Shown: positions 910 through 16,812 of the stretch, in pieces
Layout: each line of letters begins with the position of its first letter
How positions within the stretch are numbered: the stretch's first letter is position 1
Source of the DNA: Candidatus Dormibacteria bacterium
Lineage (GTDB): Bacteria; Chloroflexota; Dormibacteria; Aeolococcales; Bog-877
DNA: 64,000 bases
Direction of reading: 5' to 3'
Assembly: GCA_050734515.1 (NCBI GenBank)
Contig: JBOHUM010000029.1
Coordinates: 8,513-72,512, forward strand
Made by a program: the position numbers and the translations under genes
The notes under the pieces: model-generated
What the model was told of the DNA's origin: nothing
Databases searched by the model: none
What the model saw: only the letters and a program-made list of their open reading frames with translations

Positions 910-3612
910 TCAGTCGGGGGAGGCGATCCGCTCCAGGCGAGCCTGGGCCGCGGCCAGGCGAGCCCCCGGCACTCGGAAGGGCGAGCAGGAGACGTAGTCC
1001 AGCTGAAGGTGTTCGCAGACGGCGATCGAGGGGGCGTCGCCGCCGTGCTCGCCGCAGATGCCCACCTCGAGGTCGGGCCGGGTGGCGCGACCATCCGCCA
1101 CCGCTAGGGCCATCAGCCGCCCGACTCCCTCAGGGTCGAGGTGCTCGAAGGGGTTGGCCGGAAGGATGCCCTCCTGCACATAGCGGTTGAGGAACTTGCC
1201 CTCGGCGTCGTCGCGGGAGACGCCGTAGGTCATCTGGGTGAGGTCGTTGGTGCCGAAGGAGAAGAAGTCGGCCTGCTCCGCCACCCGGCCGGCGGTGAGC
1301 GCCGCCCGGGGCACCTCGATCATGGTCCCGATCTTGATCTCCAGGCGCTGCCCCTGTTCGCGGGCCACCTCCTTCAGGGTGGTCTCGATCACCACCCGGG
1401 AGCGGCGCAGCTCCTCGACGCTTCCCACCAGCGGCACCATGATCTCAGGGACCGGCCGCAGCCGCCGCTGGCGCAGCTCCGCCGCGGCCTCGGCGATGGC
1501 TCGCACCTGCATCTCGATGATCTCGGGGAAGAGCAGGCCCAGCCGGCAGCCGCGCAACCCCAGCATCGGGTTCTGCTCGCGCAGTTCCTCCACCGCCTCC
1601 AGGAGCCGCTCGGCCCGGGCCAGGCGCTTGGGCGCCTTCTTGGTGGCCCGCAGCCGGGCCACCTCCTCCAGCAGCAGGTCGTGGCTGGGTAGGAACTCAT
1701 GCAGGGGCGGGTCGATCAGGCGGATGATCACGGGCAGACCCTGCATCGCCTCGAGAATGCCGACGAAGTCCTGGCGCTGGTAGGGCAGGAGCCGCTGCAG
1801 CTGCCGCCGCCGCTCCCGCTCGTCCTGGGCCAGGATCATGGCTTGGACGTGGGGCAGGCGCTCCTGCTCCATGAACATGTGCTCGGTGCGGCAGAGGCCT
1901 ATGCCCTGGGCCCCGAAGCGGCGGGCCCGCTCTGCGTCGGCGGGATTGTCCGCGTTGGCCAAGACCCGAAGCCGCCGCACCTCGTCGGCCATCGCCAGCA
2001 GCTCCTCCAGGTCACCGGAGACGCTGGGCTCGACCGTGGCCACGGTGCCGGCGATCACCCGGCCGTCGCTGCCGTCGATGGTGAAGACCTCGCCCTCGCG
2101 CACGGTCACTCCCCCGGCCTGGAAGCGCCGCCGGGCCAGGTCGACCTTGACCTCCTCCGCCCCGGCCACGCAGGGCTTGCCCATCCCCCGGGCTACCACC
2201 GCCGCGTGGGAGGTGCGCCCGCCCCGGGAGGTGAGCACCCCCTCGGCGGCGATCATGCCGTGGACGTCGTCAGGGTTGGTCTCGACCCGGACCAGGATCA
2301 CCTTCTTGCCCTGGGCGGCCATGGCCTCGGCCCGATCGGCGTCGAAGACGGCGGCGCCGCTGGCGGCTCCGGGGGAGGCCGCCAGCCCCTGGGCCAGCAC
2401 CGTGACCTTGGCCCCGGGGTCGATCGCCCGATGCAGGAGGTGATCCACCTGGGCGGGTTCCACCCGGCCCAGCGCCTCATGCTTGGAGATCAGCCCCTCG
2501 CGCACCATCTCCACCGCGGTCCGGACCGCGGCCGCGGCGGTGCGCTTGGCACCCCGGGTCTGGAGCATGTAGAGCCGGCCGCGCTCGATGGTGAACTCCA
2601 TGTCCTGAACGTCGCGGTAGTGGGCCTCGAGGCGTTCGGCGATCGCCGCGAAGTCGGCGTAGACCTGGGGCAGGGCGCGCTCCAAAGCGGCGATCGGCTC
2701 GGGGGTGCGGATGCCGGCGACCACGTCCTCGCCCTGGGCGTTGAGCAGGTACTCGCCGAAGAGCCGGCGCTCTCCGGTGGAGGGGTCGCGGGTGAAGGCC
2801 ACCCCGGTACCCGAGTCCGGGCCCATGTTGCCGAAGACCATCGCCTGGACGCTGACTGCGGTACCCATGTCGTGGGGGATGTGGTTGTACTCCCGGTAGG
2901 CGACCGCCCGGCGGCCGTTCCAGGAGGAGAAGACGGCGGCGATCGCCTGGGTCAGCTGGACCTGGGGGTCCTCGGGGAACACCTTGCCGGTGTGGCGCCG
3001 GCAGCTGGCCTGGAAGCGCTCCACCAGCCGCTCCAGGGCCTCGACCGGGAGCTCGGAATCGCTCGCCACCCGGGCACGGCGCTTGGCCGCCTCCAGGTCG
3101 CTGTCGAAGACCTCGGCCTCGATCCCGAGCACGATCCGGCCGAAGAGCTGGACGAAGCGGCGCTGGGCGTCGAGGGCGAAGCGGCGGTCCCCGGTGCGGG
3201 CTGCCAGGCCCTCGACGGTGCTGGAGTTGAGCCCCAGGTTGAGGACCGTGTCCATCATCCCCGGCATGGAGATGGCGGCGCCCGAGCGCACCGACACCAG
3301 GAGTGGGTCGGCGGCGTCCCCCAGGCGCTTGCCCGCGCGCTCCTCTAGGCGAGCCAGGTGCTCGCCCACCTCGGCCAGCAACCCCTCGGGGAACCGCCCC
3401 CCGGCGCCCAGGTAGGCGGTGCAGGCCTCGGTGGTGATGGTGAAGCCCGGGGGCACGGGGAGGCCGGCCCGAGTCATCTCCGCCACTCCGGCGCCCTTGC
3501 CCCCCAGGAGGGCCCGCATCTCCCCGGTCCCCTCGGTGAAGTCGTAGACCAGCTTGGAACGGTCCGGGGGCGCCGGCCGGGTCCGGCCGCGGGCCCGGGT
3601 CGAGGTTGCCAT
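910..3612 (-). CDS. ppdK: pyruvate, phosphate dikinase
   Basis: 900-aa ORF with the PPDK N-terminal ATP-grasp (KLVYDFTEG…GGKGAGVAEM), central phospho-His domain (TSHAAVVARGMGKPCV) and C-terminal PEP-utilising TIM barrel (CRTEHMF…GICGEHGGDP). Confidence 0.92.
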   Translation of the reverse strand: MATSTRARGRTRPAPPDRSKLVYDFTEGTGEMRALLGGKGAGVAEMTRAGLPVPPGFTITTEACTAYLGAGGRFPEGLLAEVGEHLARLEERAGKRLGDAADPLLVSVRSGAAISMPGMMDTVLNLGLNSSTVEGLAARTGDRRFALDAQRRFVQLFGRIVLGIEAEVFDSDLEAAKRRARVASDSELPVEALERLVERFQASCRRHTGKVFPEDPQVQLTQAIAAVFSSWNGRRAVAYREYNHIPHDMGTAVSVQAMVFGNMGPDSGTGVAFTRDPSTGERRLFGEYLLNAQGEDVVAGIRTPEPIAALERALPQVYADFAAIAERLEAHYRDVQDMEFTIERGRLYMLQTRGAKRTAAAAVRTAVEMVREGLISKHEALGRVEPAQVDHLLHRAIDPGAKVTVLAQGLAASPGAASGAAVFDADRAEAMAAQGKKVILVRVETNPDDVHGMIAAEGVLTSRGGRTSHAAVVARGMGKPCVAGAEEVKVDLARRRFQAGGVTVREGEVFTIDGSDGRVIAGTVATVEPSVSGDLEELLAMADEVRRLRVLANADNPADAERARRFGAQGIGLCRTEHMFMEQERLPHVQAMILAQDERERRRQLQRLLPYQRQDFVGILEAMQGLPVIIRLIDPPLHEFLPSHDLLLEEVARLRATKKAPKRLARAERLLEAVEELREQNPMLGLRGCRLGLLFPEIIEMQVRAIAEAAAELRQRRLRPVPEIMVPLVGSVEELRRSRVVIETTLKEVAREQGQRLEIKIGTMIEVPRAALTAGRVAEQADFFSFGTNDLTQMTYGVSRDDAEGKFLNRYVQEGILPANPFEHLDPEGVGRLMALAVADGRATRPDLEVGICGEHGGDAPSIAVCEHLQLDYVSCSPFRVPGARLAAAQARLERIASPD

Positions 3613-3785
3613 CTGGCGGTGCCTCCTTCGAGATTGCGACCAACTTCGAGTTTAGCGTCGGGGTCGGCGGATCAAGAATGGAGCCAGTGCTAGCATCCAG
3701 GCGTCCCCCAGTGGGATCTGCGACGCGCCCAGAGGGCTGGGGCGCCCGCCGCCCGTCCTCAGGACGTCCGGGAGTTTCGAGCTAG

Positions 3786-5654
3786 ATGAGCATGCACCAA
3801 ATGGGGGGCCGGGGCGGCCACCGGATGCTGCGGGGACTCGGCGAGCCCCGAGACCCCGACCTGAGCCGTCCTCGGACCAAGGGCACGGTGCGGCGGGTGA
3901 TCCGGCTCTTCATCCCCTACCGCTGGAAGGTGGCAGGGGTGCTGGCGATCCTGATGGTGGTGGCGGGCCTGGGGATCGTCAACCCCTACATGCTCAAGTT
4001 GATCATCGACCAGGGAATCCTGCACCACAAGCTCCACCTGCTGGTGATCCTCTTCGCGGTGATGGTGATCACCCCGGTGATCAGTACCGGCCTGGGCGTC
4101 TGGCAGACCTTCCTCAACGCCGTGGTCGGGCAGCGGATGATGCAGGACCTGCGGGTCGCCCTCTACAGCCACCTCCAGAACCTGCCCCTGCGCTTCTTCA
4201 CCGCCACCCGTACCGGCGAGATCCAGTCGCGGCTGGCCAACGACGTGGGCGGAGTGGATTCGGTGATCACCAACACCGCCACCAACACCGTGGCCAACCT
4301 CACCCGGACCGCCGCCACCCTGGCGGGGATGGCCTTCCTCAGCTGGCAGCTGACCCTGCTCTCGGTGGCGCTGCTGCCCCTCTTCATTGTGGTCACGGTC
4401 CGGGTCGGCGAGGTCCGGCGCCGGGTCAGCGCCGACACCCAGGCCACTCTGGCCGACCTCTCCGCCCTGGCCGAGGAGACCCTCTCGGTGAGCGGGATCC
4501 TGCTCACCAAGGTCTACGGCCGCGAACGGGCGGCCCGGCGCCGCTACGTGAACGAGACCGGCCGGCTCACCAACCTGATGATCCGCCAGCAGATGGTGGG
4601 CCGCTGGTTCTTCGGCTTCATCCAGACCTTCTTCGCCATCCTCCCGGCGGGGGTCTACCTCATGGCCGGGCTGCTCCTCCACGCCGGCCGCGGCGGCGGG
4701 GTCACGGTGGGGACCCTGGTCTCCTTCACCACCTTCCAGTCCGCCCTCTTCTTCCCCGTCGGGCAGCTGCTCAACGTCCAGGTGGAGCTGCAGGGGGCAC
4801 TGGCCCTGTTCGACCGCATCTTCCAGTACCTGGACCTCCCGGTCGAGATCGCCGACCGCCCCGGAGCGATCTCGATCCCCACCTCCCAGATCCAGGGCCG
4901 GATCGGCTTCGAGGAGGTCAGCTTCAGCTACGAGCCAGGGACGGCGGCCGCCGTCCGCGAAGTCAGCTTCGAGGCCGAGCCCGGGCAGCTGGTGGCACTG
5001 GTGGGTCCGAGCGGGGCGGGCAAGACCACCCTGACCTACCTAATGGCCCGCCTCTACGACGTCGATCAGGGCCGGGTGCTGCTGGACGGCCACGACCTGC
5101 GGGACCTGACCCAGACCACCCTGCGCTCGGCGATCGCGGTGGTCACCCAGGAGACCTTCCTCTTCCACAGCACCATCCGCGAGAACCTCCTGGTGGGCAA
5201 GCCCGAGGCCAGCGACCAGCAGATGGAGGCCGCCGCTCGGGCGGCGGCGATCCACGACCGGATCATGGAACTGCCCCAGGGTTACGACACCGTCGGCGGC
5301 GAGCGCGGCTACCGCCTGAGCGGCGGCGAGAAGCAGCGGGTGGCCCTGGCGCGAGCCATCCTCAAGAACCCGCGGGTGCTGATCCTGGACGAGGCTACCA
5401 GCGCCCTGGACAGCCACAGCGAGCGCGCCATCCAGGCGGCCCTGGAACTGCTCATGGAGGGCCGGACCACGATCGCCATCGCCCACCGCCTCTCCACCAT
5501 CCTCGCCGCCGACCTGATCCTGATGCTGGACCACGGACGGATCATCGAACGCGGCAGCCACGCCCAGCTCCTGGCCCAGGAGGGCGCTTACGCCAAGCTC
5601 TACCTGGAGCAGTTCGCCACCCAGCCGGAGCAGTCCCTGGAGGCGGTCGGCTAG
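3786..5654 (+). CDS. ABC transporter, fused permease/ATP-binding protein (MsbA/exporter type)
   Basis: Six-TM N-terminal domain followed by Walker A GPSGAGKTT, ABC signature LSGGEKQRVALARA, and Walker B/D-loop ILDEATSALD. The true start may be an internal Met (MLRGL at 3825). Confidence 0.85.
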   Translation: MSMHQMGGRGGHRMLRGLGEPRDPDLSRPRTKGTVRRVIRLFIPYRWKVAGVLAILMVVAGLGIVNPYMLKLIIDQGILHHKLHLLVILFAVMVITPVISTGLGVWQTFLNAVVGQRMMQDLRVALYSHLQNLPLRFFTATRTGEIQSRLANDVGGVDSVITNTATNTVANLTRTAATLAGMAFLSWQLTLLSVALLPLFIVVTVRVGEVRRRVSADTQATLADLSALAEETLSVSGILLTKVYGRERAARRRYVNETGRLTNLMIRQQMVGRWFFGFIQTFFAILPAGVYLMAGLLLHAGRGGGVTVGTLVSFTTFQSALFFPVGQLLNVQVELQGALALFDRIFQYLDLPVEIADRPGAISIPTSQIQGRIGFEEVSFSYEPGTAAAVREVSFEAEPGQLVALVGPSGAGKTTLTYLMARLYDVDQGRVLLDGHDLRDLTQTTLRSAIAVVTQETFLFHSTIRENLLVGKPEASDQQMEAAARAAAIHDRIMELPQGYDTVGGERGYRLSGGEKQRVALARAILKNPRVLILDEATSALDSHSERAIQAALELLMEGRTTIAIAHRLSTILAADLILMLDHGRIIERGSHAQLLAQEGAYAKLYLEQFATQPEQSLEAVG

Positions 5655-5676
5655 GCGCCCAGCCTATGATCCGCCG

Positions 5677-6042
5677 GTGCCGGCCCGCTTCTATTCGGTG
5701 GTGATCGACTCGGCAGACCCCCGGCGGCTGGCCCGCTTCTGGGCAGAGGTGCTGGGTTTCCCGATCGTCTACGAGGCTGACGACGAGGTGGCAGTGGCCA
5801 AGGACGATGACACCTACCCTGGCCTGATCTTCGTGTCGGTGCCCGAGGCCAAGACGATCAAGAACCGCCTCCACATCGACCTGGCCCCCGACGATCGCGA
5901 CGCCGAGGTGGAGCGGCTGCTGCAGCTGGGGGCGACCCGAGCGGATGTCGGTCAGGGGCCCGATGTCACCTGGGTAGTGCTGCGAGACGTCGAGGGCAAC
6001 GAGTTCTGTGTGCTCAGCTCCCGCGAGGGTGGGGTGACCTAG
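5677..6042 (+). CDS. VOC (glyoxalase/bleomycin-resistance) family protein
   Basis: 121-aa ORF with a glyoxalase-like betaalphabeta fold signature (FYSVVIDSADPRRLARFWAEVLGF…LHIDL). Confidence 0.65.
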   Translation: MPARFYSVVIDSADPRRLARFWAEVLGFPIVYEADDEVAVAKDDDTYPGLIFVSVPEAKTIKNRLHIDLAPDDRDAEVERLLQLGATRADVGQGPDVTWVVLRDVEGNEFCVLSSREGGVT

Positions 6043-7367
6043 TCCGGGGAAACGCCGGTCGCGAGCCGTTCCCGCAGGGCCGCGACCAGGTGGTCCATCC
6101 CCACCCGGCTCTGCTCCATGCTGTCCCGCTCGCGGATGGTGGCCGCCTGATCCTCCAGGGTCTGAAAGTCGATCGTCACCGCCAGTGGGGTGCCGATCTC
6201 GTCCTGACGGCGGTAGCGGCGGCCGATCGACTGGGTGTCGTCATACTCGGTCGCGAAGTGGCGGCGCAGCTCCGCCTCCAGCCGCCGGGCCGGCTCCACC
6301 AGCTCCGCCTTCTTGGATAGCGGCAGCACCGCCACCTGGAAGGGCGCCACCTCGGCGCTGAGCCGCAGCACCACCCGGCGCTCGCCGCGCACCTGCTCCT
6401 CCTCATAGGCGTCGAGCAGCAGGCAGAGCAGGGTCCGGTCCAGGCCCAGGGCGGGCTCCACCACATAGGGAAGGTAGCGAGCGCCGGTGGCCGGATCGGT
6501 GTACTGCAGGTCGCGGCCACTGCTCTCCTGGTGGCGCCGCAGGTCGTAATCGCTGCGCCGGGCGATCCCCTCCAGCTCACCCCAGCCCCAGGGAAAGCGG
6601 TACTCGATGTCGCTGGAGGCCAGCGCGTAGTGGGCCTTCTCGTCCTCGCCGTGGGCTCGCAGGCGCAGGTTCTCCGAGCGCAGGCCCAGGGCCCGGTGCC
6701 ACTCCAGGCGCTGCTGGCACCAGTACTCGTACCAGTGCAGGTCGCGGTCGGGCTCGCAGAACCACTCCATCTCCAGCATCTCCAGCTCGCGCAGACGGAA
6801 GATGAAGTTCCCGGTGGAGATCTCGTTGCGAAAACTGCGGCCGATCTGGGCGATCCCAAACGGGACCCTCTGCCGAGAGCCGGCCAGCACGTTCTTGAAG
6901 TTGACGAACATGCCCTGAGCGGTCTCAGGGCGCAGGTAGACCACCGAGCCCGCCTCCTCGACCGGGCCGACGAAGGTCTTGAACATGAGGTTGAACTGGC
7001 GGGGAGGGCCGAGCGGCCCGCCACACTTGGGGCAGCTGCCGCCCTCGAGCTGGTCGGCGCGCCAGCGCTGGTGACAGGTGCCGAGGCAGTCCACCATCGG
7101 GTCGCTGAAGTTGCTGAGGTGTCCAGACGCCTCCCACACCCGAGGATTCATCAGGATTGCCGCCTCCAGACCCTCGACGTCGTCGCGGAGGTCGACCATG
7201 TCCCGCCACCAGAGCTCGCGAATCCGGCGCCGCATCCTCACCCCCAGGGGGCCGAAGTCGTAGACGGCGTTGAGGCCGCCATAGATCTCGCTGCTCTGAA
7301 AGACGAAGCCCCGGCGCTTGCACAGCGACACCAGGGTCTCGAGGAGATTTGCGGGCGAATCCGGCAT
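6039..7367 (-). CDS. glyQS: glycine--tRNA ligase (single-chain alpha2 type)
   Basis: N-terminus MPDSPANLLETLVSLCKRRGFVFQSSEIYGG is typical of class II GlyRS. Class II motifs are present throughout. Start chosen at the ATG at 7367, since the upstream M in the track gives an atypical extension. Confidence 0.9.
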   Translation of the reverse strand: MPDSPANLLETLVSLCKRRGFVFQSSEIYGGLNAVYDFGPLGVRMRRRIRELWWRDMVDLRDDVEGLEAAILMNPRVWEASGHLSNFSDPMVDCLGTCHQRWRADQLEGGSCPKCGGPLGPPRQFNLMFKTFVGPVEEAGSVVYLRPETAQGMFVNFKNVLAGSRQRVPFGIAQIGRSFRNEISTGNFIFRLRELEMLEMEWFCEPDRDLHWYEYWCQQRLEWHRALGLRSENLRLRAHGEDEKAHYALASSDIEYRFPWGWGELEGIARRSDYDLRRHQESSGRDLQYTDPATGARYLPYVVEPALGLDRTLLCLLLDAYEEEQVRGERRVVLRLSAEVAPFQVAVLPLSKKAELVEPARRLEAELRRHFATEYDDTQSIGRRYRRQDEIGTPLAVTIDFQTLEDQAATIRERDSMEQSRVGMDHLVAALRERLATGVSPD

Positions 7368-7427
7368 CAGGCCCTCCGGCGGACCCGGCCGGGCGCGCTC
7401 AAGGCACCGCAACTCAGGGTCAGGGCG

Positions 7428-8138
7428 TCATTCTACGGGCGGGTCCGGCTGGGCCCGCCCCACCGCCATCGCCCCCGCCGTGGTCAGGAGCGTCGCCTTC
7501 CCCGGACCCAGCACCCTCCAGCGACGGCCATCCCAGCAAAGGCCGGTGAGCTCGTCGATACCCACCAACTGATGGCGATCGGCCAGCTCTTGGGCCGCCC
7601 GCCGCCAGCGGCCGCCGGCCGAGTTCCAGTGGGGCAGCACCACCATCCGCGGCAGCAGGCCCACGCCCTGGGTCAGGGCGAACTCGCGGCCGGGAACCAA
7701 GCAGTGGGCTCCCAGCAGCATCGCCCCGGCGCTGGAGCCGGCCAGAGGCACCCCCGAGCGCAGCAGCTGGAGCAGGACCCGGGCCGCCCCGGAGCCTGCC
7801 AGCACACGGCATCCGGCACCGGGGTCGCCGCCGCAGATGTAGACCGCGGCCGCCTGCCCCAGCTGGCTCAGAAGGCCCGGGTCGGACGCGTCCCCAGGAC
7901 TCTGGATGAAGCACCCCTCCACGCTCGCCCCCAGCTGCTGGAAGTAGCTCCCGGCCCAGGCCACCGCGTCCCGCGGCCGGTCCTGGGCCGGGGAGGTCAA
8001 CACCGTCACCCGGGGATGGGCGGCACGCGCCAGCCACCAGGAGTCGGCGGCCTCGGCCCCCGGCCGCCACTCGTTGCCTCCCAGCAGGAGCAGCGTCGCT
8101 CGCGCAGGCTCGGGGCCCGCGCGGGCCACTGCTAGCAT
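7428..8138 (-). CDS. peptidase S51 family protein (dipeptidase E/cyanophycinase-like)
   Basis: 236 aa. GSSAG nucleophile-elbow motif (LAGSSAGAMLLG) and the LLLGGNE N-terminal Rossmann-like segment match S51/class I glutamine amidotransferase-like peptidases. Confidence 0.65.
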   Translation of the reverse strand: MLAVARAGPEPARATLLLLGGNEWRPGAEAADSWWLARAAHPRVTVLTSPAQDRPRDAVAWAGSYFQQLGASVEGCFIQSPGDASDPGLLSQLGQAAAVYICGGDPGAGCRVLAGSGAARVLLQLLRSGVPLAGSSAGAMLLGAHCLVPGREFALTQGVGLLPRMVVLPHWNSAGGRWRRAAQELADRHQLVGIDELTGLCWDGRRWRVLGPGKATLLTTAGAMAVGRAQPDPPVE

Positions 8139-8144
8139 CGATCA

Positions 8145-10316
8145 ATGCTGCGCCTCTACGACACCCGCACGCGGCAGGTGCGTCCCCTGCAACCCCGGGA
8201 GGCGGGGATGCTGCGCATGTACAGCTGCGGGCCCACCGTCTACCGCTCCGTCCACATCGGCAACCTGCGCACCTACCTGCTGGCCGACTGGATCAAGCGG
8301 GCGGCTCGGCAGCAGGGCTGGCGGGTGCTGCACGTCAAGAACATCACCGACGTCGGCCACATGCGCCAGGAGATGGCGGAGCGCGGCGGCGACAAGGTCA
8401 TCGCCGCCGCGCTGGCCGCGGGCCGCACCCCTGCCGAGATCGCCCGGCAGTTCGAGGAGGAGTTCCACCGCTCGGAGGCCGCCCTGGGGATCGAGGCCGC
8501 CGACCACTTTCCCCGGGCCACCGAGCACGTGCCCCAGATGCTGGACTTAATCCAGACCCTGGAGCGTCGCGGGCTCGCCTACCGGGCGGCCGACGCCGTC
8601 TACTTCGACACCGCCGCCGCCGACGGCTACGGTGCCCTCTCGGGCAACTCTCGGGAGCAGCTGCAGGCGGCCGCCGCCGCCGAGGGCGACCCCGCCAAGC
8701 GCAGCCCCGGCGACTTCACCCTCTGGCGTCTGGCCGAGCCCGGCCGCCAGCTGATGGTCTGGGACAGCCCCTACGGCCGTGGTTTCCCCGGCTGGCACAT
8801 CGAGTGCTCGGCGATGGCGATGGCCTACCTGGGCGAGGAGCTGGATCTGCACACCGGGGGAGTCGACAACATCTTTCCCCATCACGAGGACGAGCTCGCC
8901 CAGAGCCACGGCGCCACCGGGGGGAGCTTCGTCCGCCACTGGGTGCACGGCCAGCATGTGCTCGCCGACGGGGTCAAGATGGCCAAGTCCCAGGGCAACG
9001 TCTACACGCTGGCCGACCTGACCGCCCGCGGCTTCGACCCCCTGGCCTTCCGCTATCTCTGCGCCGGCACCCGCTACCGGACCCGCCTCAACTTCACGTT
9101 GGCCGCCCTGGCCTCGGCCCAGAGGGGTCTGCAGCGGCTGCGCCAGCTGGCGACCGCATCCGGGGGCGAGTCCCTGCAGCCGCGGCTCGAGGAGCTCGGG
9201 GCGGGAGTGGCTCAGGCCTTCGCCGACGATCTCGACGTGCCCCGGGCGCTGGCACTGGTCTGGCGCTTCGCCCGCGAGCCTGGGCTCTCCCCCGCCACCC
9301 GGCGGGCAGGGATCCTTGGAGCCGACCGGCTCCTGGGCCTGGGCCTGGACCGGCCCGCCCGGGAGGAGGCGCCCCAGGGCGAGTGGCACGAGCTGGCCCG
9401 GGCGCGCCAGGGAGAGCGCGCGTCGGCGCGATACCAGCAGGCGGACCGGCTCCGGGTCCAGCTGCTGGACCGCCTGGTGGTGCCCGAGGACGGCACCAGC
9501 CCCTCCCGCTACCGCTCCGCCACCGCTCTCGACCTGCGCCACGGGCTGATCTCCTCCCCGGCCCAGGTACCGGACCGGCGCTCCCAGCCCGACCAGGCGG
9601 ACGTGACCGTGAGCCTGGTGAGCAGCGGCTATCCCCAGGACCTAGAGCGCTGCCTGGGGAGCGTGCTGCGCCACCGGGGCCGGCAGCGGGTCGAGGTCCT
9701 GGCAGTGGACAACGACGGCCAGGATGGGGTGGGCCAGCTGCTGGACCGCCTTGCCGCCCGCGAGCCGGGGGTCCGGGTCTTCCACGCCGACCACCGCCTG
9801 GGCGAGGGCGCGGCCCGCAACGTCACCCTGCGAGCCGCCAGCGGTCGGGTGGTGCTGGTGCTGGACACCGGGGTCGAGGTGTTGGGGGACTGCTTCTCGC
9901 CCCTGCTCCAGGCCCTCGAGGACCCGAGCGTGGGCGCGGTCGGCCGCTGGGGCGCCCGCAGCCGCGACCTGCGCGAGTTTCAGGACTCCCAGGCCCGGGA
10001 GGTGGACGCGATCGACGGCTACTGCCTCGGCTTCGCCCGCCGCCGCCTCGGCGAGGTCGGCCTTTTCGACGAGGGCTTTCGCTTCTACCGAATGCTCGAT
10101 TTCAACTTCTGCCTCGCCCTGCGTGCCCGCGGTCTGCGCCAGGTGCGGCTGGCGCAGCTACCGGTGGAGCTGCACCAGCACCGCGGCTGGGAGGAGACCG
10201 ACCCTGAGGAGCGGGAACGCCTCAGCCGCCTCAATTTCCGCCGCTTCTACGAACGCTGGCATCACCGTCCCGACCTGCTGCTGGAGCCCGAGCCCGCCCT
10301 GCCCTCGCCCCCCTGA
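8145..10316 (+). CDS. cysS: cysteine--tRNA ligase homologue fused to a C-terminal GT2 glycosyltransferase domain
   Basis: Residues 1-470 are a full class I CysRS. They include the CGPTVY Zn-Cys, HIGN in place of HIGH, WHIECS, HHEDELAQS, KMAKSQGN (KMSKS), and an anticodon-binding domain (DDLDVPRALALVWRFA). Residues 490-723 are a GT-A fold GT2 domain (VSLVSSGYPQDLERCL…AVDNDGQDG…GEGAARN…LDTG). The two parts are in one frame with no stop. Confidence 0.8.
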   Translation: MLRLYDTRTRQVRPLQPREAGMLRMYSCGPTVYRSVHIGNLRTYLLADWIKRAARQQGWRVLHVKNITDVGHMRQEMAERGGDKVIAAALAAGRTPAEIARQFEEEFHRSEAALGIEAADHFPRATEHVPQMLDLIQTLERRGLAYRAADAVYFDTAAADGYGALSGNSREQLQAAAAAEGDPAKRSPGDFTLWRLAEPGRQLMVWDSPYGRGFPGWHIECSAMAMAYLGEELDLHTGGVDNIFPHHEDELAQSHGATGGSFVRHWVHGQHVLADGVKMAKSQGNVYTLADLTARGFDPLAFRYLCAGTRYRTRLNFTLAALASAQRGLQRLRQLATASGGESLQPRLEELGAGVAQAFADDLDVPRALALVWRFAREPGLSPATRRAGILGADRLLGLGLDRPAREEAPQGEWHELARARQGERASARYQQADRLRVQLLDRLVVPEDGTSPSRYRSATALDLRHGLISSPAQVPDRRSQPDQADVTVSLVSSGYPQDLERCLGSVLRHRGRQRVEVLAVDNDGQDGVGQLLDRLAAREPGVRVFHADHRLGEGAARNVTLRAASGRVVLVLDTGVEVLGDCFSPLLQALEDPSVGAVGRWGARSRDLREFQDSQAREVDAIDGYCLGFARRRLGEVGLFDEGFRFYRMLDFNFCLALRARGLRQVRLAQLPVELHQHRGWEETDPEERERLSRLNFRRFYERWHHRPDLLLEPEPALPSPP

Positions 10317-10330
10317 GGCGCCCGGAAGCC

Positions 10331-11080
10331 TCAGCTCCCGAGCTCGGCCAGCACCCGCGCCGCCCGCAGGGGCCGGTCCAGGTGATGCTCTAGGTGCGCC
10401 AGCAGGATGGTCTGGGTCTGGTCCCGAAGCCGCTCGGTCCAGCGCAGCCGGCGCAGCGTGGCGACGTCCCCGGCCTCCAGGCGCCGCAGCAGCCGCAGCG
10501 TCTCCGCGGCGCAGGCCAGTGCCTCGGGATGGGCTTGCCAGCAGCCACCCTGGACCACGCCCCCGAGCCCGGGCAGAAAGCCGCCATCGCGATCCGCGAG
10601 CGGCTCGCCGCAGAGGGCGCAGCGAGCCAAATCAGGACGGTAGCCGCCGGCAACCGCGATCTGGAAGGCGCCCCAGGCCAGCTCGGCCCGGGGGTCGCTG
10701 CCCGGGTCGGCCAGGCGCTCCCGGAGTCCCGCCACCAGGAAGTAGAGCCCGGGGTCGGGATGGCCCTCCTCCAGGGTGGCGTCGACCAGCTCCGCCAGGA
10801 CCGCGCCGCAGGCGGTGCGGATCAGGTCCTGGCCCGGCCAGGGCAGCCCCAGCGGGCGGGCCTGGGTCAGGAGCGCCAGGCCCCGCCCCTGGGCCAGGAG
10901 CACCTCCGAGCGGGTCAGCAGGTCGAGGCCGGCGGCATTACGCGCCCGGGGCCGGCGGGCCCCCCGGGCAAGCACGCTCAGCTTGCCGTGGTCGCGCGTG
11001 ACCATCACCAGGACTCGGTCGGCCTCGGAGTAGGTCCGCCGCCGCAGGACGATGCCTTCGTCGCGGACCGGGGCCGCCAC
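10331..11080 (-). CDS. recO: DNA repair protein RecO
   Basis: 249 aa. N-terminal OB-fold (EGIVLRRRTYSEADRVLVMVTRDHGKLSVLARGARR) and a C-terminal Cys-rich zinc motif (CALCGEP…GGCWQ). Confidence 0.85.
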   Translation of the reverse strand: MAAPVRDEGIVLRRRTYSEADRVLVMVTRDHGKLSVLARGARRPRARNAAGLDLLTRSEVLLAQGRGLALLTQARPLGLPWPGQDLIRTACGAVLAELVDATLEEGHPDPGLYFLVAGLRERLADPGSDPRAELAWGAFQIAVAGGYRPDLARCALCGEPLADRDGGFLPGLGGVVQGGCWQAHPEALACAAETLRLLRRLEAGDVATLRRLRWTERLRDQTQTILLAHLEHHLDRPLRAARVLAELGS

Positions 11081-11088
11081 TCAGGGCC

Positions 11089-12423
11089 CTAGCCGGGGCC
11101 GTTCTGGCCGGCGGGCAGGGCCGCCGCCGACCCCGGCTCCCCGCCCTCTCCGGGGAGAGCGACCTCGAATGGACGGTCGCGGCGCAGCCGGACGGTGCGA
11201 ATCGCCCGGCGCTCGATGGCCTCCACCGTGATGGTCACCCCGTCGCCGGTGCTGACCTCATCCCCGACCGCCGGGATCCGCCCCAGATGGGCGTAGACCA
11301 AACCCCCGAGCGAGTCGAAGTCCTCGCCCTCGAGCTTGAGGTGGAGCACGTCGTTGACGTCATCCAGGCTCACCGAGGCACTGGCGAGGGCCTCGGCGGG
11401 GGCGATCAGCTGGATCTCCTCCGGCTCGTCCCGGTCGTACTCGTCGCGGATCGGTCCCACGATCTCCTCAAGCAGGTCTTCGATGGTCACCAGCCCGGCG
11501 GTGCCGCCGTACTCGTCCACCACCATCGCCAGATGGGTCTTGGCCAGCTGCATCTCCTGGAGCAGCTCGCCCAGGTGCTTGGCCTCAGGCACGAAGGTGG
11601 CCGGGCGGGCCAGCTCACCCACCCGCGCCGGCTGGCCGCCGCCCCCGGTCGCGGCCCCCAGCAGGTCCTTGGCGTAGAGCACCCCGGTGATGTTGTCCAC
11701 CGTCTCCTCATACACGGGGATCCGGCTGTGGCCTTGCGTCTTGATCTCGCTGATGGCGTCTTCAAGGCTGGCCTCGGCCGCCAGGGCGACCATCTGCACC
11801 CGGGGCACCATCACCTCTCGGACCGGCTTGTCGGTCATCTCCAGGACCCCGTGGATCATCTCCCGCTCCTCCTCCTCGACTACGCCCTCCTGCTGGCTGG
11901 CGGAGACCAGCTCCTTGAGCTCGTCCTCGCTGAGAAAGGGGGTGCGGCGCCCGCCCTGGCCGGGCAGCACCCGGAAAACCAGCGAGGAGACCCAGGTCAG
12001 CACCAGCAGCAGGGGGCGCAGGGCCGAGGTCAGGCCCGCCACCGGCCGGGCCAGGACCCGGGCCACCCCCTCGTTGTGCTGGAGCGCGTAGGTCTTGGGA
12101 CCAAGCTCGCAGAAGAGGAGCACCAGGATCGAGAGCGCCAGCGCCGACCACAGTGCGGCACCCGTCCCCAGGCGCCGCTCCGCCAGCAGGGTCGCCGCCG
12201 ATGAGGCGATCACCACCGCCAAGGTGTTGGTGACCAGGATCGTCCCCAGGTACCCACCCGGGTCGCGGTGGAGCCGTTCGATGAGCGCGGCCCGGCGGTC
12301 GCCCTCGGCGCGGCGGGCGCGGATCTTGAGCCGGCTGACCGAGGTCAGCGAGGTCTCGGCGGTGGCGGAGAGGCCGGCCACCACCAAGGCCAGCACCAGC
12401 AGCAGGACCAGCCAGGTGGTCAT
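11089..12423 (-). CDS. CNNM/CorC-HlyC family transporter (DUF21-CBS pair-CorC_HlyC)
   Basis: N-terminal four-TM DUF21, tandem CBS domains, and a C-terminal CorC_HlyC domain ([27 protein letters not shown]). Confidence 0.85.
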
Positions 12424-12591
12424 GGAGCCACGGAGGCGATCCGGGCCGCCATTTCCTCCCTGTTGGCCGAGGTGACGCCGGGACGGCCCGGGCCGCGGTC
12501 TCTTGTCCCCGGGCCCGCTCTGCCTACTTGCCGCCCGCCGCTCGGTGAGCCAGAGCTCATCTGCGGCTCGCAGTCTAGCAGGCGGCTGAGA

Positions 12592-13545
12592 TCACCTAAA
12601 GAGGGCCGAGACCGATCTCCCCTCGTGCACCCGGACGATGGCCTCGGCGATCAGGGGCGCAACCGAGACCTGGGTCACCTTGTCGCTGCCGGCCGCCTCC
12701 TCGCTGATGGGGACGCTGTCGGTGATCACCACCTCGTCCACCGGCGCCTCCTCCAGCCGGCGCAGGGCCCCGTTGCTGAGCACTCCATGGGTGGCCAGCA
12801 CGTCGACCGAGACGGCGCCGCTGGCCTTGAGCGCCTGGGCGGCTCCGGCCAGGGTGGCTCCGGTGGAGATCAGGTCGTCGACCACCACGCAACGGCTGCC
12901 CTCAACGTCGCCGATGACGTTGAGGATCTCGACGTCGTCGTCCCGGGGCCGCCGCTTGTCGATGATCGCCAGCGGGGAGTCGAGGCGGCGGGCGATGGCC
13001 CGGGCGCGGGCGGTGCCGCCGACGTCGGGCGAGACCACCACCAGCTGCTGCCGGCCATGGCGGGAGCGCACGTGACCGGCCAGGATCTTGCCCGCGGTGA
13101 GCGCGTCCACGGGGATGTCGAAGAAGCCCTGGATGGCCTCGGCGTGGAGATCGAGGACGATCATGCGCTCGGCGCCCGCCCCCTGGAGGAAGTTGGCCAT
13201 CAGCTTGGCCGAGATCGGGTCCCGGGCCTGGGTCTTCTTCTCCTTGCGCTGGTAGCCGTAGTAGGGCAGCACGGCATTGATCCGCGAGGCGCTGGCCCGG
13301 CGCAGGGCGTCGAGGAGGATGAACAGCTCCATGTAGTTGTCATTGCCGGGCGGGCAGGTGGGCTGGATCAGGAAGACGTCGTGGCCGCGGACCGACTCCC
13401 CGATCTTGACGTCGAACTCACCATCGGCGAACCGCGTCACCTCCAGGGGGGCCAGTGCCACCCCCACCTCTTCGGCGATCTTGGCCCCGAGGGCGGGATG
13501 GGCGGAGCCGCAGAGCAGCATCAGGGGGCCCTCGGACCCGTTCAT
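12592..13545 (-). CDS. prs: ribose-phosphate pyrophosphokinase
   Basis: 317 aa. PRPP synthetase motifs (DLHAEAIQGFFDIPVD, VVSPDVGG, PRPP-binding loop DDLISTGATL). Confidence 0.92.
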   Translation of the reverse strand: MNGSEGPLMLLCGSAHPALGAKIAEEVGVALAPLEVTRFADGEFDVKIGESVRGHDVFLIQPTCPPGNDNYMELFILLDALRRASASRINAVLPYYGYQRKEKKTQARDPISAKLMANFLQGAGAERMIVLDLHAEAIQGFFDIPVDALTAGKILAGHVRSRHGRQQLVVVSPDVGGTARARAIARRLDSPLAIIDKRRPRDDDVEILNVIGDVEGSRCVVVDDLISTGATLAGAAQALKASGAVSVDVLATHGVLSNGALRRLEEAPVDEVVITDSVPISEEAAGSDKVTQVSVAPLIAEAIVRVHEGRSVSALFR

Positions 13546-15008
13546 CCGCCCTCCCCTGCCGACCGGCGGCGGCGGCGCCCGTAGTCCGCAATGTTGCGCT
13601 GGCGCGACCGGGAGACGGCCAGGGCGCCGTCGGGAACGTCCTCGGTCACCACCGAGCCGGCACCGGTGTAGGCTCCCCGACCGACCCGCACCGGGGCCAC
13701 CAGGATGGTGTCCGACCCCAGCCGCGCCCCCTCGTCGATCACGGTGCGGTGCTTCTGCAGGCCGTCCCAGTTGGCGGTGATGCTGCCGGCGCCGACGTTG
13801 ACGTCTGGACCCAGCTCCGCATCCCCTAGGTAGGTTAGGTGGGGGACCTGGCTGCCCGCCCCGACCTGGGAGCGCACCACCTCCGTGAAGGTGCCGAGAT
13901 GGGAGTTGGGACCCAGGCTGCTCTCCGGGCGCACGCGGTTGAAGGGTCCGACATCCACTCCGTCGGCCAGCTTACAGCCGGCGAGGTGGGCCCGCCCGAT
14001 CTGGCAGCCATCACCCACCTCCGCGTCCTCCAGTTCCGCGAAGGGCCCGATGACGCAGCCCGCACCGACCCGGGTGCGGCCGCGCAGCACCGTCCCCGGG
14101 GCGAGCACGGTGTCCTCCCCCACCTCCACGTCGCAGTCGACCCAGGTGGCAGCCGGATCGACGACTGTTACTCCCGAGCGCATCAGCCGCTCCAGGGTGC
14201 GCCGCCGCAGCAGCCCCTCGGCGTGGGCCAGCTGGAGGCGGTCATTGACCTGGGTGGCCAGCTCGGCGTCCTCAAGATCGACCGTCACCACTCCCCCGTC
14301 GACCAGCTGCGGCAGCCAGCTCAGGTAGCGCTCGCCCTGGACGTTGTCGGCGCCCAGCCGGGTCAGTCCCTCCCGGGCCCTCGCCAGGGAGAAGCAGTAG
14401 ACACCGCAGTTAACCTCCGCCGGCCGCCCGTCCCAGGGCTGGTCGGCGTCCTCTACCACCCGCAGGAACCCGCCCTCCGCCGAGCGCTGCACCCGGCCAA
14501 ACCCCGAGGCGTCATTCCTGGTCGCGGTGAGCAGACCGGCCCCCGCTCCGGCGGCCTCGCGCGCCGTCACCAGCTGGCGCAGAGCCTCCGCGGGAAGCAG
14601 AGGCATGTCGGCCGGGAGCACCAGCAGCACCCGCGCCCCTCCCACCTGGGGCAGCGCCCGCTCCAGGGCATCTCCGGTGCCCAGGGGCTCGGGCTGGGCC
14701 ACCAGCTCGGCGCGGCCCGCCAGCCACTCGGCCACCTGCTCGCCACCTTGGTCCGGCACCACCACCAGGGGAATGTCCTCCCCCACGGCGACCGCGAGCC
14801 GGAGGGCATGTTCCAGCAGCGGCAGGCCCCCGACCCGGTGCAGGACCTTGGGCAGGCGGGAGCGCATTCTCCGCCCCTGACCGGCGGCGAGGATCACGGT
14901 CCGCGCAGCCGAGCCTTCGCTCAATTCACACTCCGCGGCCAGCCCGTCCTCAACTCCGCGACGGTTGCCGAGTATAGCAACGGATCGCCCGATTCCAAGT
15001 TCGCGCAA
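13542..15008 (-). CDS. glmU: bifunctional UDP-N-acetylglucosamine pyrophosphorylase / glucosamine-1-phosphate N-acetyltransferase
   Basis: N-terminal nucleotidyltransferase (VILAAGQGRRMRSRLPKVLH) and C-terminal left-handed beta-helix hexapeptide repeats. Overlaps prs by 4 nt. The true start is probably about 30 codons downstream of 15008, near 14909. Confidence 0.88.
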   Translation of the reverse strand: MRELGIGRSVAILGNRRGVEDGLAAECELSEGSAARTVILAAGQGRRMRSRLPKVLHRVGGLPLLEHALRLAVAVGEDIPLVVVPDQGGEQVAEWLAGRAELVAQPEPLGTGDALERALPQVGGARVLLVLPADMPLLPAEALRQLVTAREAAGAGAGLLTATRNDASGFGRVQRSAEGGFLRVVEDADQPWDGRPAEVNCGVYCFSLARAREGLTRLGADNVQGERYLSWLPQLVDGGVVTVDLEDAELATQVNDRLQLAHAEGLLRRRTLERLMRSGVTVVDPAATWVDCDVEVGEDTVLAPGTVLRGRTRVGAGCVIGPFAELEDAEVGDGCQIGRAHLAGCKLADGVDVGPFNRVRPESSLGPNSHLGTFTEVVRSQVGAGSQVPHLTYLGDAELGPDVNVGAGSITANWDGLQKHRTVIDEGARLGSDTILVAPVRVGRGAYTGAGSVVTEDVPDGALAVSRSRQRNIADYGRRRRRSAGEGG

Positions 15009-15082
15009 AGGGAGGTTATGCTGCCCGGCGTGAGCGCGGGCGACGCCGGCAGCAGCGCCGCGCCGGGGTCGGGCCGGGCGGG

Positions 15083-15895: not shown

Positions 15896-15925
15896 TTGCG
15901 GGCCGGACCCGGTGCGGGGTGGGGA

Positions 15926-16699: not shown

Positions 16700-16812
16700 C
16701 AGCCGGGTGCTCCGGGGATCATCCGCTTCATTGTCGGGACCCGCCCCAGCCCCGGTCCGGCGGCCCAACCGGGGACACGGCGCCGCCTAGGTGGGGTGGG
16801 TATCCTGAACCC

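Follow-up and report, generated by a model that had tools for sequence, protein, structure and literature searches.

A Conserved Glycosyltransferase Domain in the Cysteinyl-tRNA Synthetase of Dormibacteria and Chloroflexota, Possibly Directed to tRNA-Cys

Results

A glycosyltransferase domain at the end of a cysteinyl-tRNA synthetase gene

In the stretch of Dormibacteria DNA analyzed here (64 kb, hereafter the window), one gene begins with ATG and runs through 723 codons with no internal stop, encoding a class I cysteinyl-tRNA synthetase (CysRS) that continues through its anticodon-binding region, which ends in a CysS_C domain, and a linker into a family 2 glycosyltransferase (GT2) domain (Table 1). 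The gene product matches P0001, "cysteine--tRNA ligase [Candidatus Dormibacteria bacterium]," at 100% identity, and the genes around it are of a housekeeping kind (glyQS, recO, prs, glmU, and nth). The AF2 model of the full-length fusion has a pLDDT of 90.3 and a pTM of 0.83. No second cysS-like sequence and no second copy of the GT2 domain was found in the 64-kb window.

Table 1. Features of the fused gene, with positions numbered along the window
Feature	Position	Strand	Basis
Whole gene, CysRS-CysS_C-linker-GT2 fusion	8145..10316	+	Single ORF, 723 aa plus stop
Class I CysRS catalytic (Rossmann + CP) domain, aa 16-326	8190..9122	+	Pfam PF01406 tRNA-synt_1e, E=3e-87
HIGN (aa 37-40), subtype form of the HIGH signature	8253..8264	+	HIGN 56, HLGN 7, HVGN 6 of 69
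Subtype-specific insertion GHMRQEMAERGG (aa 71-82), after NITDV	8355..8390	+	Present in 3SP1 and 6UJD; not in E. coli or 8QHP CysRS
KMAKS (aa 278-282), KMSKS loop	8976..8990	+	KMAKS 59, KMSKS 9, KMAKA 1 of 69
Helical part of the anticodon-binding region (aa 331-411)	9135..9377	+	Within TIGR00435 match; helical in AF2 model
CysS_C alpha/beta anticodon-reading domain (aa 412-460)	9378..9524	+	Profile alignment to 1li5/1u0b 414-460, E=1e-10
Linker (aa 461-484), conserved S470..VP(S/D) motif	9525..9596	+	S470 conserved to ≥90%; linker ordered in each of the two AF2 models
GT2 / GT-A glycosyltransferase domain (aa 485-715)	9597..10289	+	PF00535 Glycos_transf_2 match
D574-T-G-V-E578, at the position of the DxD metal/nucleotide-sugar motif	9864..9878	+	Structural alignment
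R646-F-Y-R-M-L-D652	10080..10100	+	D652 aligned with the Asp of "xED" in GT2 enzymes
H677-x-H679, candidate C-terminal metal ligand(s)	10173..10181	+	H-x-H shared by 68/69 fused and ≥90% of free forms
Arg-rich C-terminal helix PEERERLSRLNFRRFYERWHHR (aa 687-708)	10203..10268	+	AF2 helix 687-705; gave pattern [ED]R[ED]RLS[KR]RN[FY]

Since the source is a MAG, we considered whether a lost stop codon or a frameshift had joined two genes during assembly or annotation; nothing else speaks in favor of such an artifact. Against it, 81 of 86 loci, which come from independent assemblies and include complete chromosomes, have the two halves in a single frame, and the best 120 protein matches all contain both domains, at lengths of 700-765 aa. 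GC3 is uniform across the CysRS/GT2 junction (0.94/0.92/0.92/0.91), and the linker is conserved and ordered. The chance that the fusion is an artifact is therefore negligible, and the missing stop, frameshift, or sequencing error that a preliminary description of this DNA had allowed for is excluded by conservation over so many independent assemblies. Its single uninterrupted frame, CysRS followed by GT2, holds: given the intact ORF, the motifs, the uniform GC3, and the in-frame fusion at most loci, the fused gene is real and a product neither of chance nor of assembly.

The family was surveyed with two family-specific patterns, FR[FW]YRx[AL]D and [ED]R[ED]RLS[KR]RN[FY], and the fusion search had matches in no fewer than 590 GTDB species (Chloroflexota, Dehalococcoidia, SAR202, and Dormibacteria). 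The CysRS-GT2 fusion is the norm in Dormibacteria and in much of Chloroflexota, so that the earlier statement that neither domain architecture is standard is right in comparison with the CysRS of model organisms but too strong for these lineages. Between classes, fused homologues are more conserved in the CysRS core (63% identity) than in the GT2 domain (47%); the mean identity of the CysRS catalytic domain to that of Chloroflexota fused homologues is likewise 63%.

The synthetase part is a complete CysRS with a subtype signature

We then compared the N-terminal part with family models and solved structures. The NCBIfam model TIGR00435 (cysS) aligns to aa 2-451 over model positions 1-458 of 466 with 349.1 bits, a narrow margin above its cut-off of 340, and the top-scoring model, PRK14536, gives 373 bits, under its own very high cut-off of 780. 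Membership in the MshC family was ruled out (TIGR03447, 240 bits against a cut-off of 485.1). The best PDB match of the full-length model is the E. coli CysRS-tRNACys complex (1u0b_B, target-normalized TM 0.83), and no PDB chain covers both halves of the fusion model (best TMq 0.55). Zn ligands were assigned by alignment to the conserved E. coli motifs GWHIECSAM and FPHHE.E.AQS; taking C28, C209, H234, and E238, together with W205, to be the Zn/cysteine-binding residues of the E. coli enzyme, the corresponding residues of the fusion are C28, C221, H246, and E250, plus W217, all of them invariant in 69 homologues. K278, M279, and K281 of the KMSKS loop, which here reads KMAKSQGN (aa 278-285, nt 8976-8999), are invariant in the same set. 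With TIGR00435 above its cut-off and these residues invariant, the proposal of a complete class I CysRS, with Zn ligands, KMAKSQGN, and an anticodon-binding domain, is borne out.

The Asn in place of the second His of the HIGH signature could be taken for a departure and a sign of neofunctionalization. However, H-x-G-N is found in 69 of 69 fused homologues, and the HIGN-type motif occurs, with the same insertion, in the solved housekeeping CysRS 3SP1 (HIGNFRTY) and 6UJD (HLGNVRT). HIGN is thus the norm for the CysRS subtype that carries the insertion, and lost or altered ATP chemistry as its meaning was ruled out. Within the insertion, residues G71-Q75 are invariant in the 69 fused homologues, and the local pLDDT of aa 71-82 in the AF2 model is low (57-64). 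Set against CysRS of this "HIGN + TDxGH insertion" subtype (PRK14536/PRK14534 type; Borrelia burgdorferi 3SP1 and Elizabethkingia 6UJD), the N-terminal 460 aa of the fusion are alike: they have HIGN/HLGN, 10-12 residues inserted behind NITD(V/I/A)GH, the positions of the Zn ligands, the KM(A/S)KS loop, and the helical plus CysS_C anticodon-binding region in common. The fusion differs by ∼260 additional C-terminal residues (linker + GT2), which no solved CysRS has. These sequence features are best explained if the gene product is a CysRS of the HIGN-plus-insertion subtype that is competent in catalysis.

The GT2 domain has a GT-A fold and a reduced DxD motif

The Pfam match to PF00535 (Glycos_transf_2) extends over aa 498-621 (E=2.6e-18, 67 bits against a gathering threshold of 23.3), and the domain has a GT-A fold. 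D574 is aligned with the first Asp of "DADD" in 6p61 and of "DAD" in 6yv7, so that the canonical DxD is reduced to its first Asp, in the form D-T-G/S-x-E, with an invariant Glu after it. Both D574 and E578 are invariant in the 69 fused homologues; among the free-standing forms described below, E578 does not vary, and conservation of D574 is at least 90%, two members being without it. A "VDNDG" stretch is also present in the GT2 part, at aa 521-525. The preliminary description of a GT-A fold GT2 with DxD-type motifs is therefore correct as to the fold and the family, but the DxD is degenerate, with only the first Asp retained.

Toward the C terminus, D652 is aligned with the Asp of "GGED" in K4CP, the alignment to 6p61 being shifted, and R646, Y648, R649, and D652 are invariant. 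In the C-terminal helix, S694 and N697 are invariant whether the protein is fused or free, and F701 is invariant in the fused form, while R690 and R700 are at least 90% conserved. Compared with generic soluble GT2/GT-A enzymes (SpsA 1H7L, PcManGT 6YV7, K4CP 2Z86, GlfT2 4FIX, and the GT27 enzyme GalNAc-T1), identity is at most 22%, and the domain is set apart by the D-T-(G/S)-x-E form of its DxD, by the two patterns used in the survey as motifs of its own, and by the CysS_C domain that always precedes it. We take the GT2 domain to be a soluble, apparently active glycosyltransferase.

The CysS_C-GT2 unit also occurs as a free-standing protein

CysS_C, linker, and GT2 are also found together as free proteins of 300-340 aa, mostly, going by NCBI names, in uncultured Actinomycetota and in some cases beside a complete cysS. 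These free homologues start with CysS_C (Pfam PF23493, down to 2e-8), and a profile built from this segment matched, at E <0.001, only CysRS C-termini in the PDB (1li5/1u0b 414-460, E=1e-10). CysS_C is retained both in free genes beside a complete cysS, which has a CysS_C of its own, and in free genes in unrelated operons, so it is not the leftover of a split gene. Where a free gene adjoins cysS, the two are convergent and hence not cotranscribed. In the AF2 model of the CysS_C + GT2 module, the two domains form one compact body (pLDDT 90.6, pTM 0.87).

We therefore asked how far the anticodon-reading residues of CysS_C are kept. In the fusion, R421, R425, Y430, A433-D434, R437, and D449 correspond to E. 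coli R423, R427, W432, A435-D436, R439, and D451, and in the E. coli complex 1U0B, R423, R427, W432, D436, and R439 contact G34 or line the anticodon pocket (PMC12684709, PMC13449415). Among the free members (n = 289), the equivalents of R423 and R427 are Arg in 284/285 and 286/287 sequences, respectively, while that of W432 is aromatic in 287/287, that of D436 is Asp in 288/288, and that of R439 is Arg or Lys in 284/288; in the rest of the domain, the top residue averages 51%. Some of the conserved CysS_C residues may be structural, as they are also family-defining for the domain. Together, the sequence comparisons indicate that the conserved unit under selection is CysS_C + linker + GT2 and that the GT2 domain is tied evolutionarily to the anticodon-reading rather than to the cysteine-activating domain of CysRS.

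Gene neighborhood and literature

When flanking ORFs were clustered over 83 loci, no conserved operon partner was found and only the gene itself was conserved: the large clusters consisted of ORFs read out of frame from this high-GC gene, and among genuine neighbors the best cluster covered just 26 of the 83 loci. No linked tRNA-Cys gene was found in the window or at 60 loci. Genes of the mshA/mshB/mshD type, which code for a GT4, a deacetylase, and an acetyltransferase and are not necessarily clustered, were absent from the 10 annotated flanking genes (window positions 910-16768), and none was conserved within 6 kb at the 83 loci, a distance to be read with the same reservation about clustering. 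A full-text literature search found no description of a CysRS-glycosyltransferase architecture, and it is not mentioned in Mukai et al. 2017 or Aravind et al. 2010.

Discussion

Our best reading of these sequences is that the gene encodes a housekeeping CysRS bearing a glycosyltransferase that may be directed to tRNA-Cys. Our confidence is high in the gene itself, in the conserved fusion, in the motifs of the CysRS, in the GT-A fold of the GT2 domain, and in the existence of free CysS_C-GT2 proteins with conserved anticodon-contact residues; for the mechanism of tRNA-directed glycosyl transfer as a whole, we would put the probability at roughly 0.4. The CysS_C + linker + GT2 unit and the synthetase share a single CysS_C in Dormibacteria and Chloroflexota, and in other lineages, mostly uncultured Actinomycetota, the free protein brings its own. 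In the proposed mechanism, CysS_C would dock on the GCA anticodon of tRNA-Cys, placing the putative GT2 site (D574/E578, D652, H677/H679, and the Arg-rich C-terminal helix) at the anticodon stem-loop, where the GT2 domain would move a sugar from a nucleotide-sugar onto a nucleoside of the tRNA.

What points to this mechanism is the completeness of the CysRS and its housekeeping neighborhood, the subtype-normal HIGN, the widespread in-frame fusion, the CysS_C + GT2 unit, the retention of CysS_C in free genes even beside a complete cysS, the near-invariance of the G34-contact residues in the free members, the conserved GT2 residues, the compact AF2 models of module and fusion, and the precedent of QTGAL and QTMAN. 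These eukaryotic enzymes are the only RNA glycosyltransferases described as working at a tRNA anticodon loop (PMC12518689). As a functional precedent, they modify queuosine-34 of tRNA-Tyr and tRNA-Asp with galactose or mannose, but they differ in being eukaryotic and in acting on queuosine, which tRNA-Cys (GCA) does not have; the likeness meant here, beyond the general GT fold, is one of function. The degenerate DxD, the lack of a linked tRNA-Cys gene at 60 loci, and the convergence of free gene and cysS count against the mechanism. So does the fact that, to our knowledge, no glycosylated nucleoside is known from bacterial tRNA-Cys. QTGAL and QTMAN are not known to have a targeting domain derived from an aminoacyl-tRNA synthetase (aaRS).

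The preliminary description had offered a low-molecular-weight thiol ligase alongside a tRNA-dependent or moonlighting essential enzyme; the latter comes closest to the evidence, and the former is unsupported. As a thiol ligase, the protein would be a mycothiol-like enzyme rather than a housekeeping CysRS, its CysRS module ligating cysteine onto an amino-sugar made by the GT2 domain. Mycothiol and bacillithiol synthesis do combine a glycosyltransferase with a cysteine ligase in this way; MshC, the L-cysteine:GlcN-Ins ligase of the mycothiol pathway (PDB 3C8Z and 8HFM), is paralogous to CysRS and has the catalytic fold and the cysteine/Zn site in common with the fusion (E=3e-55 by sequence; TMt ∼0.85, the model superposing on 3c8z at 0.85), the joining of cysteine with sugar chemistry gives a conceptual link, and glmU lies 3 kb from the fused gene. 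Yet the fusion fails the TIGR03447 cut-off while passing that of cysS, the proximity of glmU is not conserved, no deacetylase or acetyltransferase is conserved nearby at the 83 loci, and HIGN is no deviation. MshC, moreover, is not known to have the whole anticodon-binding region of CysRS: solved MshC chains are 413-414 residues long, and matches to them end near query residue 372-378, whereas the fusion retains the whole region up to the C-terminal CysS_C, with its G34-reading residues intact, and the free homologues have CysS_C only, without a cysteine-activating domain. We regard a thiol ligase as very improbable. That the GT2 domain is instead a pseudoenzyme, catalytically dead and retained by CysRS for binding or as a structural add-on, is suggested by the absent second Asp of the DxD (D-T-G/S), by R-x-x-D in place of the usual "ED" in one of two structural alignments, and by the loss of D574 from two free members; but active GT-A families often have DxD variants, ∼25 polar residues are invariant or nearly so over fused and free forms, and the carboxylate pair D574/E578, D621, D652, and H677/H679 lie at positions of GT-A metal binding and catalysis, making a dead enzyme unlikely.

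If the GT2 domain is active, its acceptor may be other than the tRNA nucleoside. It could glycosylate a protein, a small molecule, or an envelope precursor, with CysS_C as scaffold, sensor, or tether; binding of uncharged tRNA-Cys might then exert allosteric control over the transferase or link it to the translation machinery. We consider this a real but doubtful alternative, and a pure scaffold role would leave unexplained why exactly the anticodon-contact residues, otherwise free to drift, are near-invariant in 289 divergent free proteins; a role as regulatory sensor is compatible with all results presented here. Improbable, in our judgment, is an action on the aminoacyl moiety of Cys-tRNA-Cys (cysteine S- or N-glycosylation) that feeds a tRNA-dependent glycoconjugate pathway, by analogy with an aaRS fused to an enzyme consuming its product: the GT2 domain sits on the anticodon end in a predicted rigid arrangement (pTM 0.83), and the 3' end of a tRNA lies ∼70 Å from its anticodon end by general tRNA geometry. 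In addition, SunS is no nearer to the GT2 domain than dozens of other GT-A enzymes are, and genes of a downstream pathway are not conserved at the 83 loci.

Returning to glycosyl transfer onto tRNA-Cys, the logic would resemble that of known systems in which a second enzyme is fused to an aaRS module, or has taken one over, and a specific tRNA is thereby channeled or targeted. LysX of mycobacteria is a LysRS-MprF fusion whose partner consumes the aminoacyl-tRNA, and GluQRS/YadB is a GluRS paralogue that modifies the anticodon of tRNA-Asp, having re-used the catalytic domain and lost the anticodon domain. CysS_C-GT2 differs from both: it is the anticodon-reading domain that has been re-used, and its partner is a glycosyltransferase. 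We tentatively raise the possibility that CysS_C-GT2 proteins are a new class of bacterial RNA-modifying enzyme, namely a tRNA-Cys-specific glycosyltransferase that finds its substrate via a copy of the CysRS anticodon reader; this stronger claim is the more doubtful one.

Should the GT2 domain act on tRNA-Cys, it would be, as far as is generally known, the first bacterial tRNA glycosyltransferase, and tRNA-Cys charging and glycosylation would reside on one polypeptide, within the essential CysRS, in Dormibacteria and Chloroflexota. It would also mean a glycosylated nucleoside in the tRNA-Cys anticodon stem-loop of several large, mostly uncultured lineages, that is, a new tRNA modification in Chloroflexota, Dormibacteria, and uncultured Actinomycetota, groups that abound in soil, in the subsurface, and in the ocean (SAR202), as well as a rare instance in which the anticodon-binding domain of an aaRS has come to serve a different enzyme as a free-standing targeting module. 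Even on a conservative reading, the presumably essential CysRS of a phylum-level lineage has a conserved enzyme domain that annotation has missed, the protein being named just "cysteine--tRNA ligase." The hundreds of free members are annotated inconsistently, as "hypothetical," as "glycosyltransferase," or, wrongly, as "cysteinyl-tRNA synthetase."

The CysRS–GT2 fusion is real and widespread

The cysS-GT2 gene is one 723-codon open reading frame in a window of 66–75% G+C; for its protein, the databases hold a 100% identical sequence that derives from a Candidatus Dormibacteria metagenome-assembled genome (MAG). As the preliminary description had it, a cysteinyl-tRNA synthetase (CysRS) and a family-2 glycosyltransferase (GT2) domain share this single frame, both being found by Pfam, and alignment confirmed where it had placed the synthetase motifs and Zn-site residues. 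The NCBIfam cysS model TIGR00435 scored 349.1 bits (cut-off 340) over aa 2–451, covering almost all of its 466 positions.

Features of the cysS-GT2 gene, its protein and nearby genes; CysS_C residues are given with their E. coli CysRS equivalents and their occurrence in free-standing CysS_C-GT2 proteins
Feature	Window position (strand)	Protein position	E. coli CysRS	Free members
cysS-GT2 gene	8145-10316 (+)	1-723
S51/cyanophycinase-like peptidase gene	7428-8138 (-)
prs + glmU	12592-15008 (-)
CysRS class I catalytic domain, PF01406 (E=3e-87)		16-326
GT2 domain, PF00535 (E=2.6e-18)		498-621
HIGN		37-40
Insertion GHMRQEMAERGG	8355-8390	71-82
KMAKSQGN		278-285
Zn-site and associated positions		C28/C221/H246/E250 + W217
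CysS_C, R		R421	R423	284/285
CysS_C, R		R425	R427	286/287
CysS_C, F, W or Y		Y430	W432	287/287
CysS_C, D		D434	D436	288/288
CysS_C, R or K		R437	R439	284/288
CysS_C, D		D449	D451	289/289

The same description had raised the worry that assembly created the fusion. The best 120 database matches, down to 48% identity, were all 700–765 aa long and all carried both Pfam domains, and the CysRS core and GT2 lay in one unbroken frame at 81 of 86 loci, complete chromosomes included. In addition, GC3 was even over the CysRS/GT2 junction, and the linker (S470..VPS) was kept across homologues and ordered in the AF2 models. An artefact is thus hardly credible; the fusion truly exists, is conserved and has a wide distribution. 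When GTDB was scanned with two family-specific peptide patterns, using one genome per species, at least 600 stretches matched, at least 590 of which were confirmed; the best 80 loci were in MAGs of Chloroflexota, Dehalococcoidia and SAR202, a good number of which are complete chromosomes. Since Dormibacteria are a sister of Chloroflexota or a class inside it (PMC10608941), a fusion common to both was most simply inherited.

The architecture is already present in public databases, labeled plainly "cysteine--tRNA ligase," while proteins without the synthetase part are annotated inconsistently. No description of it was found in the full-text literature searched, where coverage of subscription journals is thin, so that absence is not proof. 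We rate the protein as a CysRS to which an as yet uncharacterised enzyme has been appended.

The synthetase half appears to be of housekeeping type

Conservation within the protein is highest in the CysRS core (63% identity to Chloroflexota homologues, against 47% for GT2), where the catalytic and Zn-site residues were all invariant in 69 homologues. A full-length AF2 model (pLDDT 90.3, pTM 0.83) found its best PDB match in the E. coli CysRS–tRNACys complex (1u0b), all 461 residues of which were aligned with a target-normalised TM of 0.83. The gene lies among housekeeping genes, in the order ppdK, an ABC exporter, glyQS, the S51 peptidase, cysS-GT2, recO, a CorC-like gene, prs, glmU, echA, and nth, and no second cysS-like sequence was found within the 64-kb window. 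Judged by sequence and model, the CysRS half appears functional and of the housekeeping kind. Its ATG (8145) lies only 6 bp from the annotated ATG of the divergent peptidase gene, whose product matches the cyanophycinase model weakly (49.9 bits, cut-off 126.6); either each gene has its promoter within the coding region of its neighbour, or the start of the peptidase is further downstream.

The Asn of HIGN had been taken as a deviation hinting at a changed function, a reading that did not hold. The motif occurs in solved housekeeping enzymes from Borrelia burgdorferi (3SP1, HIGNFRTY) and Elizabethkingia (6UJD, HLGNVRT), and all 69 fused homologues carried H-x-G-N (HIGN 56, HLGN 7, HVGN 6). Stand-alone cysS genes beside free GT2 genes belong to the same subtype (AHVGNLRSY, AHIGNLRTF). 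By these alignments, HIGN is the normal form of one CysRS subtype and is therefore uninformative on neofunctionalisation. A 10- to 12-residue insertion after NITD(I/A)GH is likewise found in 3SP1 and 6UJD and is absent from the E. coli and 8QHP enzymes. In the 69 homologues its sequence was almost invariant, and in the AF2 model it is the least confident region of the CysRS body (pLDDT 57–64); it may be a mobile loop conserved across the whole subtype.

GT2 is paired with the anticodon-reading domain outside the fusion

A search with GT2 only returned many proteins of 300–340 aa that were not fragments. Two of them, P0194 (330 aa, on a 1.73-Mb contig) and P0175 (326 aa, on six contigs), are complete genes, each tail-to-tail with a complete cysS of 513–524 aa. 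Four more (P0200, P0231, P0224, and P0206), also complete, lie in unrelated surroundings, the last, from a Dormibacteraceae MAG, following ETF genes. All open with a CysS_C domain of about 50 residues (Pfam E down to 2e-8), which Pfam names the "cysteinyl-tRNA ligase anticodon binding domain." At E<0.001, the PDB matches to a profile of this segment were confined to the far C-terminal ends of CysRS chains (3tqo 415–460, E=1.6e-11; E. coli 1li5/1u0b 414–460, E=1e-10). Since the adjoining cysS carries its own CysS_C, that of the free gene is not a split-gene leftover.

The free proteins make up a large family. In a word-indexed search there were 1,785 clusters at E<1e-10, the named ones being Actinomycetota MAGs; 1.84 billion representatives searched exhaustively with a profile yielded 538 matches at E<=1e-30. 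Of the best 150 among these 538, most were 300–345 aa long and matched from about profile position 4, and thus include CysS_C; fused forms of 709–818 aa were a minority of clusters. Many free 300-aa proteins (among P0121–P0355) are called "cysteinyl-tRNA synthetase" by JGI without having the synthetase catalytic domain, a systematic mis-annotation caused by the small CysS_C domain.

The C-terminal domain of E. coli CysRS (residues 403–461) binds the anticodon, G34 being hydrogen-bonded by R427 and D436, stacked on W432, and connected through a network of waters to D436 and R423 (PMC12684709); R427, W432, D436, and R439 are the four positions of the anticodon pocket at which mutations were made to alter which anticodon is read (PMC13449415). 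By profile alignment, the invariant positions of the CysS_C-GT2 module fall exactly on these residues (table). Among the 289 free-standing members surveyed, whose CysS_C segments average only 46% pairwise identity, the commonest residue averaged 51% at the remaining CysS_C positions.

In L004 (8001–10542), L002 (8001–10545), L005, and L006, the free gene is convergent with a complete cysS, the 3′ ends overlapping by 14 bp in L004 and lying about 10 bp apart in L002. This pair, with flanking SBP_bac_5, Peptidase_MA_2, and DUF881 genes, is kept between two proteins that share about 40% identity with the domain in the window; the pairing persists without co-transcription. In Actinomycetota-like contigs (L087 4188–6906, L088 3878–6596, and that of P0224), the free gene is third in an apparent operon after a luciferase-like monooxygenase and an alpha/beta-hydrolase gene; P0231 likewise follows a luciferase-like monooxygenase and an alpha/beta-hydrolase. 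The hydrolase gene overlaps the GT2 gene start, and ftsH and an ECF sigma/anti-sigma pair adjoin; the operon possibly hints at the chemistry. An odd poly-anticodon-reader from the exhaustive profile search, P0491 (990 aa), has about 11 tandem CysS_C repeats (PF23493, 128.8 bits, 11 matched stretches), and no catalytic domain was detected in it.

GT2 appears catalytically equipped

An AF2 model of aa 391–723 (63 sequences) reached pLDDT 90.6 and pTM 0.87. In profile alignments, D574 aligns with the leading Asp of DxD, and D652 matches the Asp in the GGED motif of K4CP. The "DxD-type motifs" described earlier stand as to the first Asp only, the homologous site reading D574-T-G-V-E578 rather than canonical DxD. 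In fused forms D574, E578, D621, R646, Y648, R649, D652, and H679 were invariant and H677 at least 90% conserved; in free forms, too, most of these residues were invariant or reached at least 90% conservation. The C-terminal helix is Arg-rich. Such conservation indicates strong purifying selection, and GT2 looks equipped for catalysis, the place of DxD being taken by an unusual D-T-(G/S)-x-E. The degenerate DxD would suit a pseudoenzyme, an unlikely reading given so many invariant polar residues.

A tRNA-Cys-directed glycosyltransferase is favoured

In fused and free forms and in at least three lineages, the alignments tie GT2 to the region with which CysRS reads the tRNA-Cys anticodon, not to its cysteine-activating region. 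The pairing is obligatory, and the interest lies here, not where the preliminary description put it. The most economical explanation is that CysS_C would bring the transferase to tRNA-Cys, a single CysS_C in the fusion serving both synthetase and transferase. The predicted rigid arrangement (pTM 0.87 and 0.83) would hold GT2 beside the anticodon stem-loop, far from the acceptor end. Given this placement and the CysS_C linkage, we favour GT2 as a putative tRNA-Cys-directed glycosyltransferase with its acceptor in or near the anticodon loop. Anticodon-loop RNA glycosyltransferases are known only from eukaryotes, namely, QTGAL and QTMAN acting on queuosine (PMC12518689); that the CysS_C-GT2 module represents a wholly new category of tRNA-modifying enzyme in bacteria is a real possibility, though less likely than not.

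CysS_C might instead be a scaffold or a tRNA-sensing regulatory module, with a non-RNA acceptor for GT2. We consider this a fair possibility. In its pure-scaffold form, it leaves unexplained why invariance falls on the residues that contact RNA. That the cysteine of Cys-tRNA-Cys is what becomes glycosylated is improbable, as GT2 sits at the anticodon end and no downstream genes are conserved. Slightly less probable still is the mycothiol-like thiol pathway of the preliminary description, with an MshC-like enzyme: the NCBIfam MshC model failed (240 bits, cut-off 485.1), the anticodon reader is retained, the cysteine-activating domain is missing from the free forms, and no neighbour gene was conserved across 83 loci. 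The tRNA-Cys-directed transferase remains our preferred reading. At no locus examined was a tRNA-Cys gene found linked to the family; in one Chloroflexi MAG (L007), a fused cysS-GT2 has a tRNA-SeC gene (458–555) some 4 kb upstream, an isolated case. The prs and glmU genes (UDP-GlcNAc synthesis), 2.3–4.7 kb downstream in the window, are a tempting hint of the donor sugar, but the other 82 loci show no conservation of this proximity.
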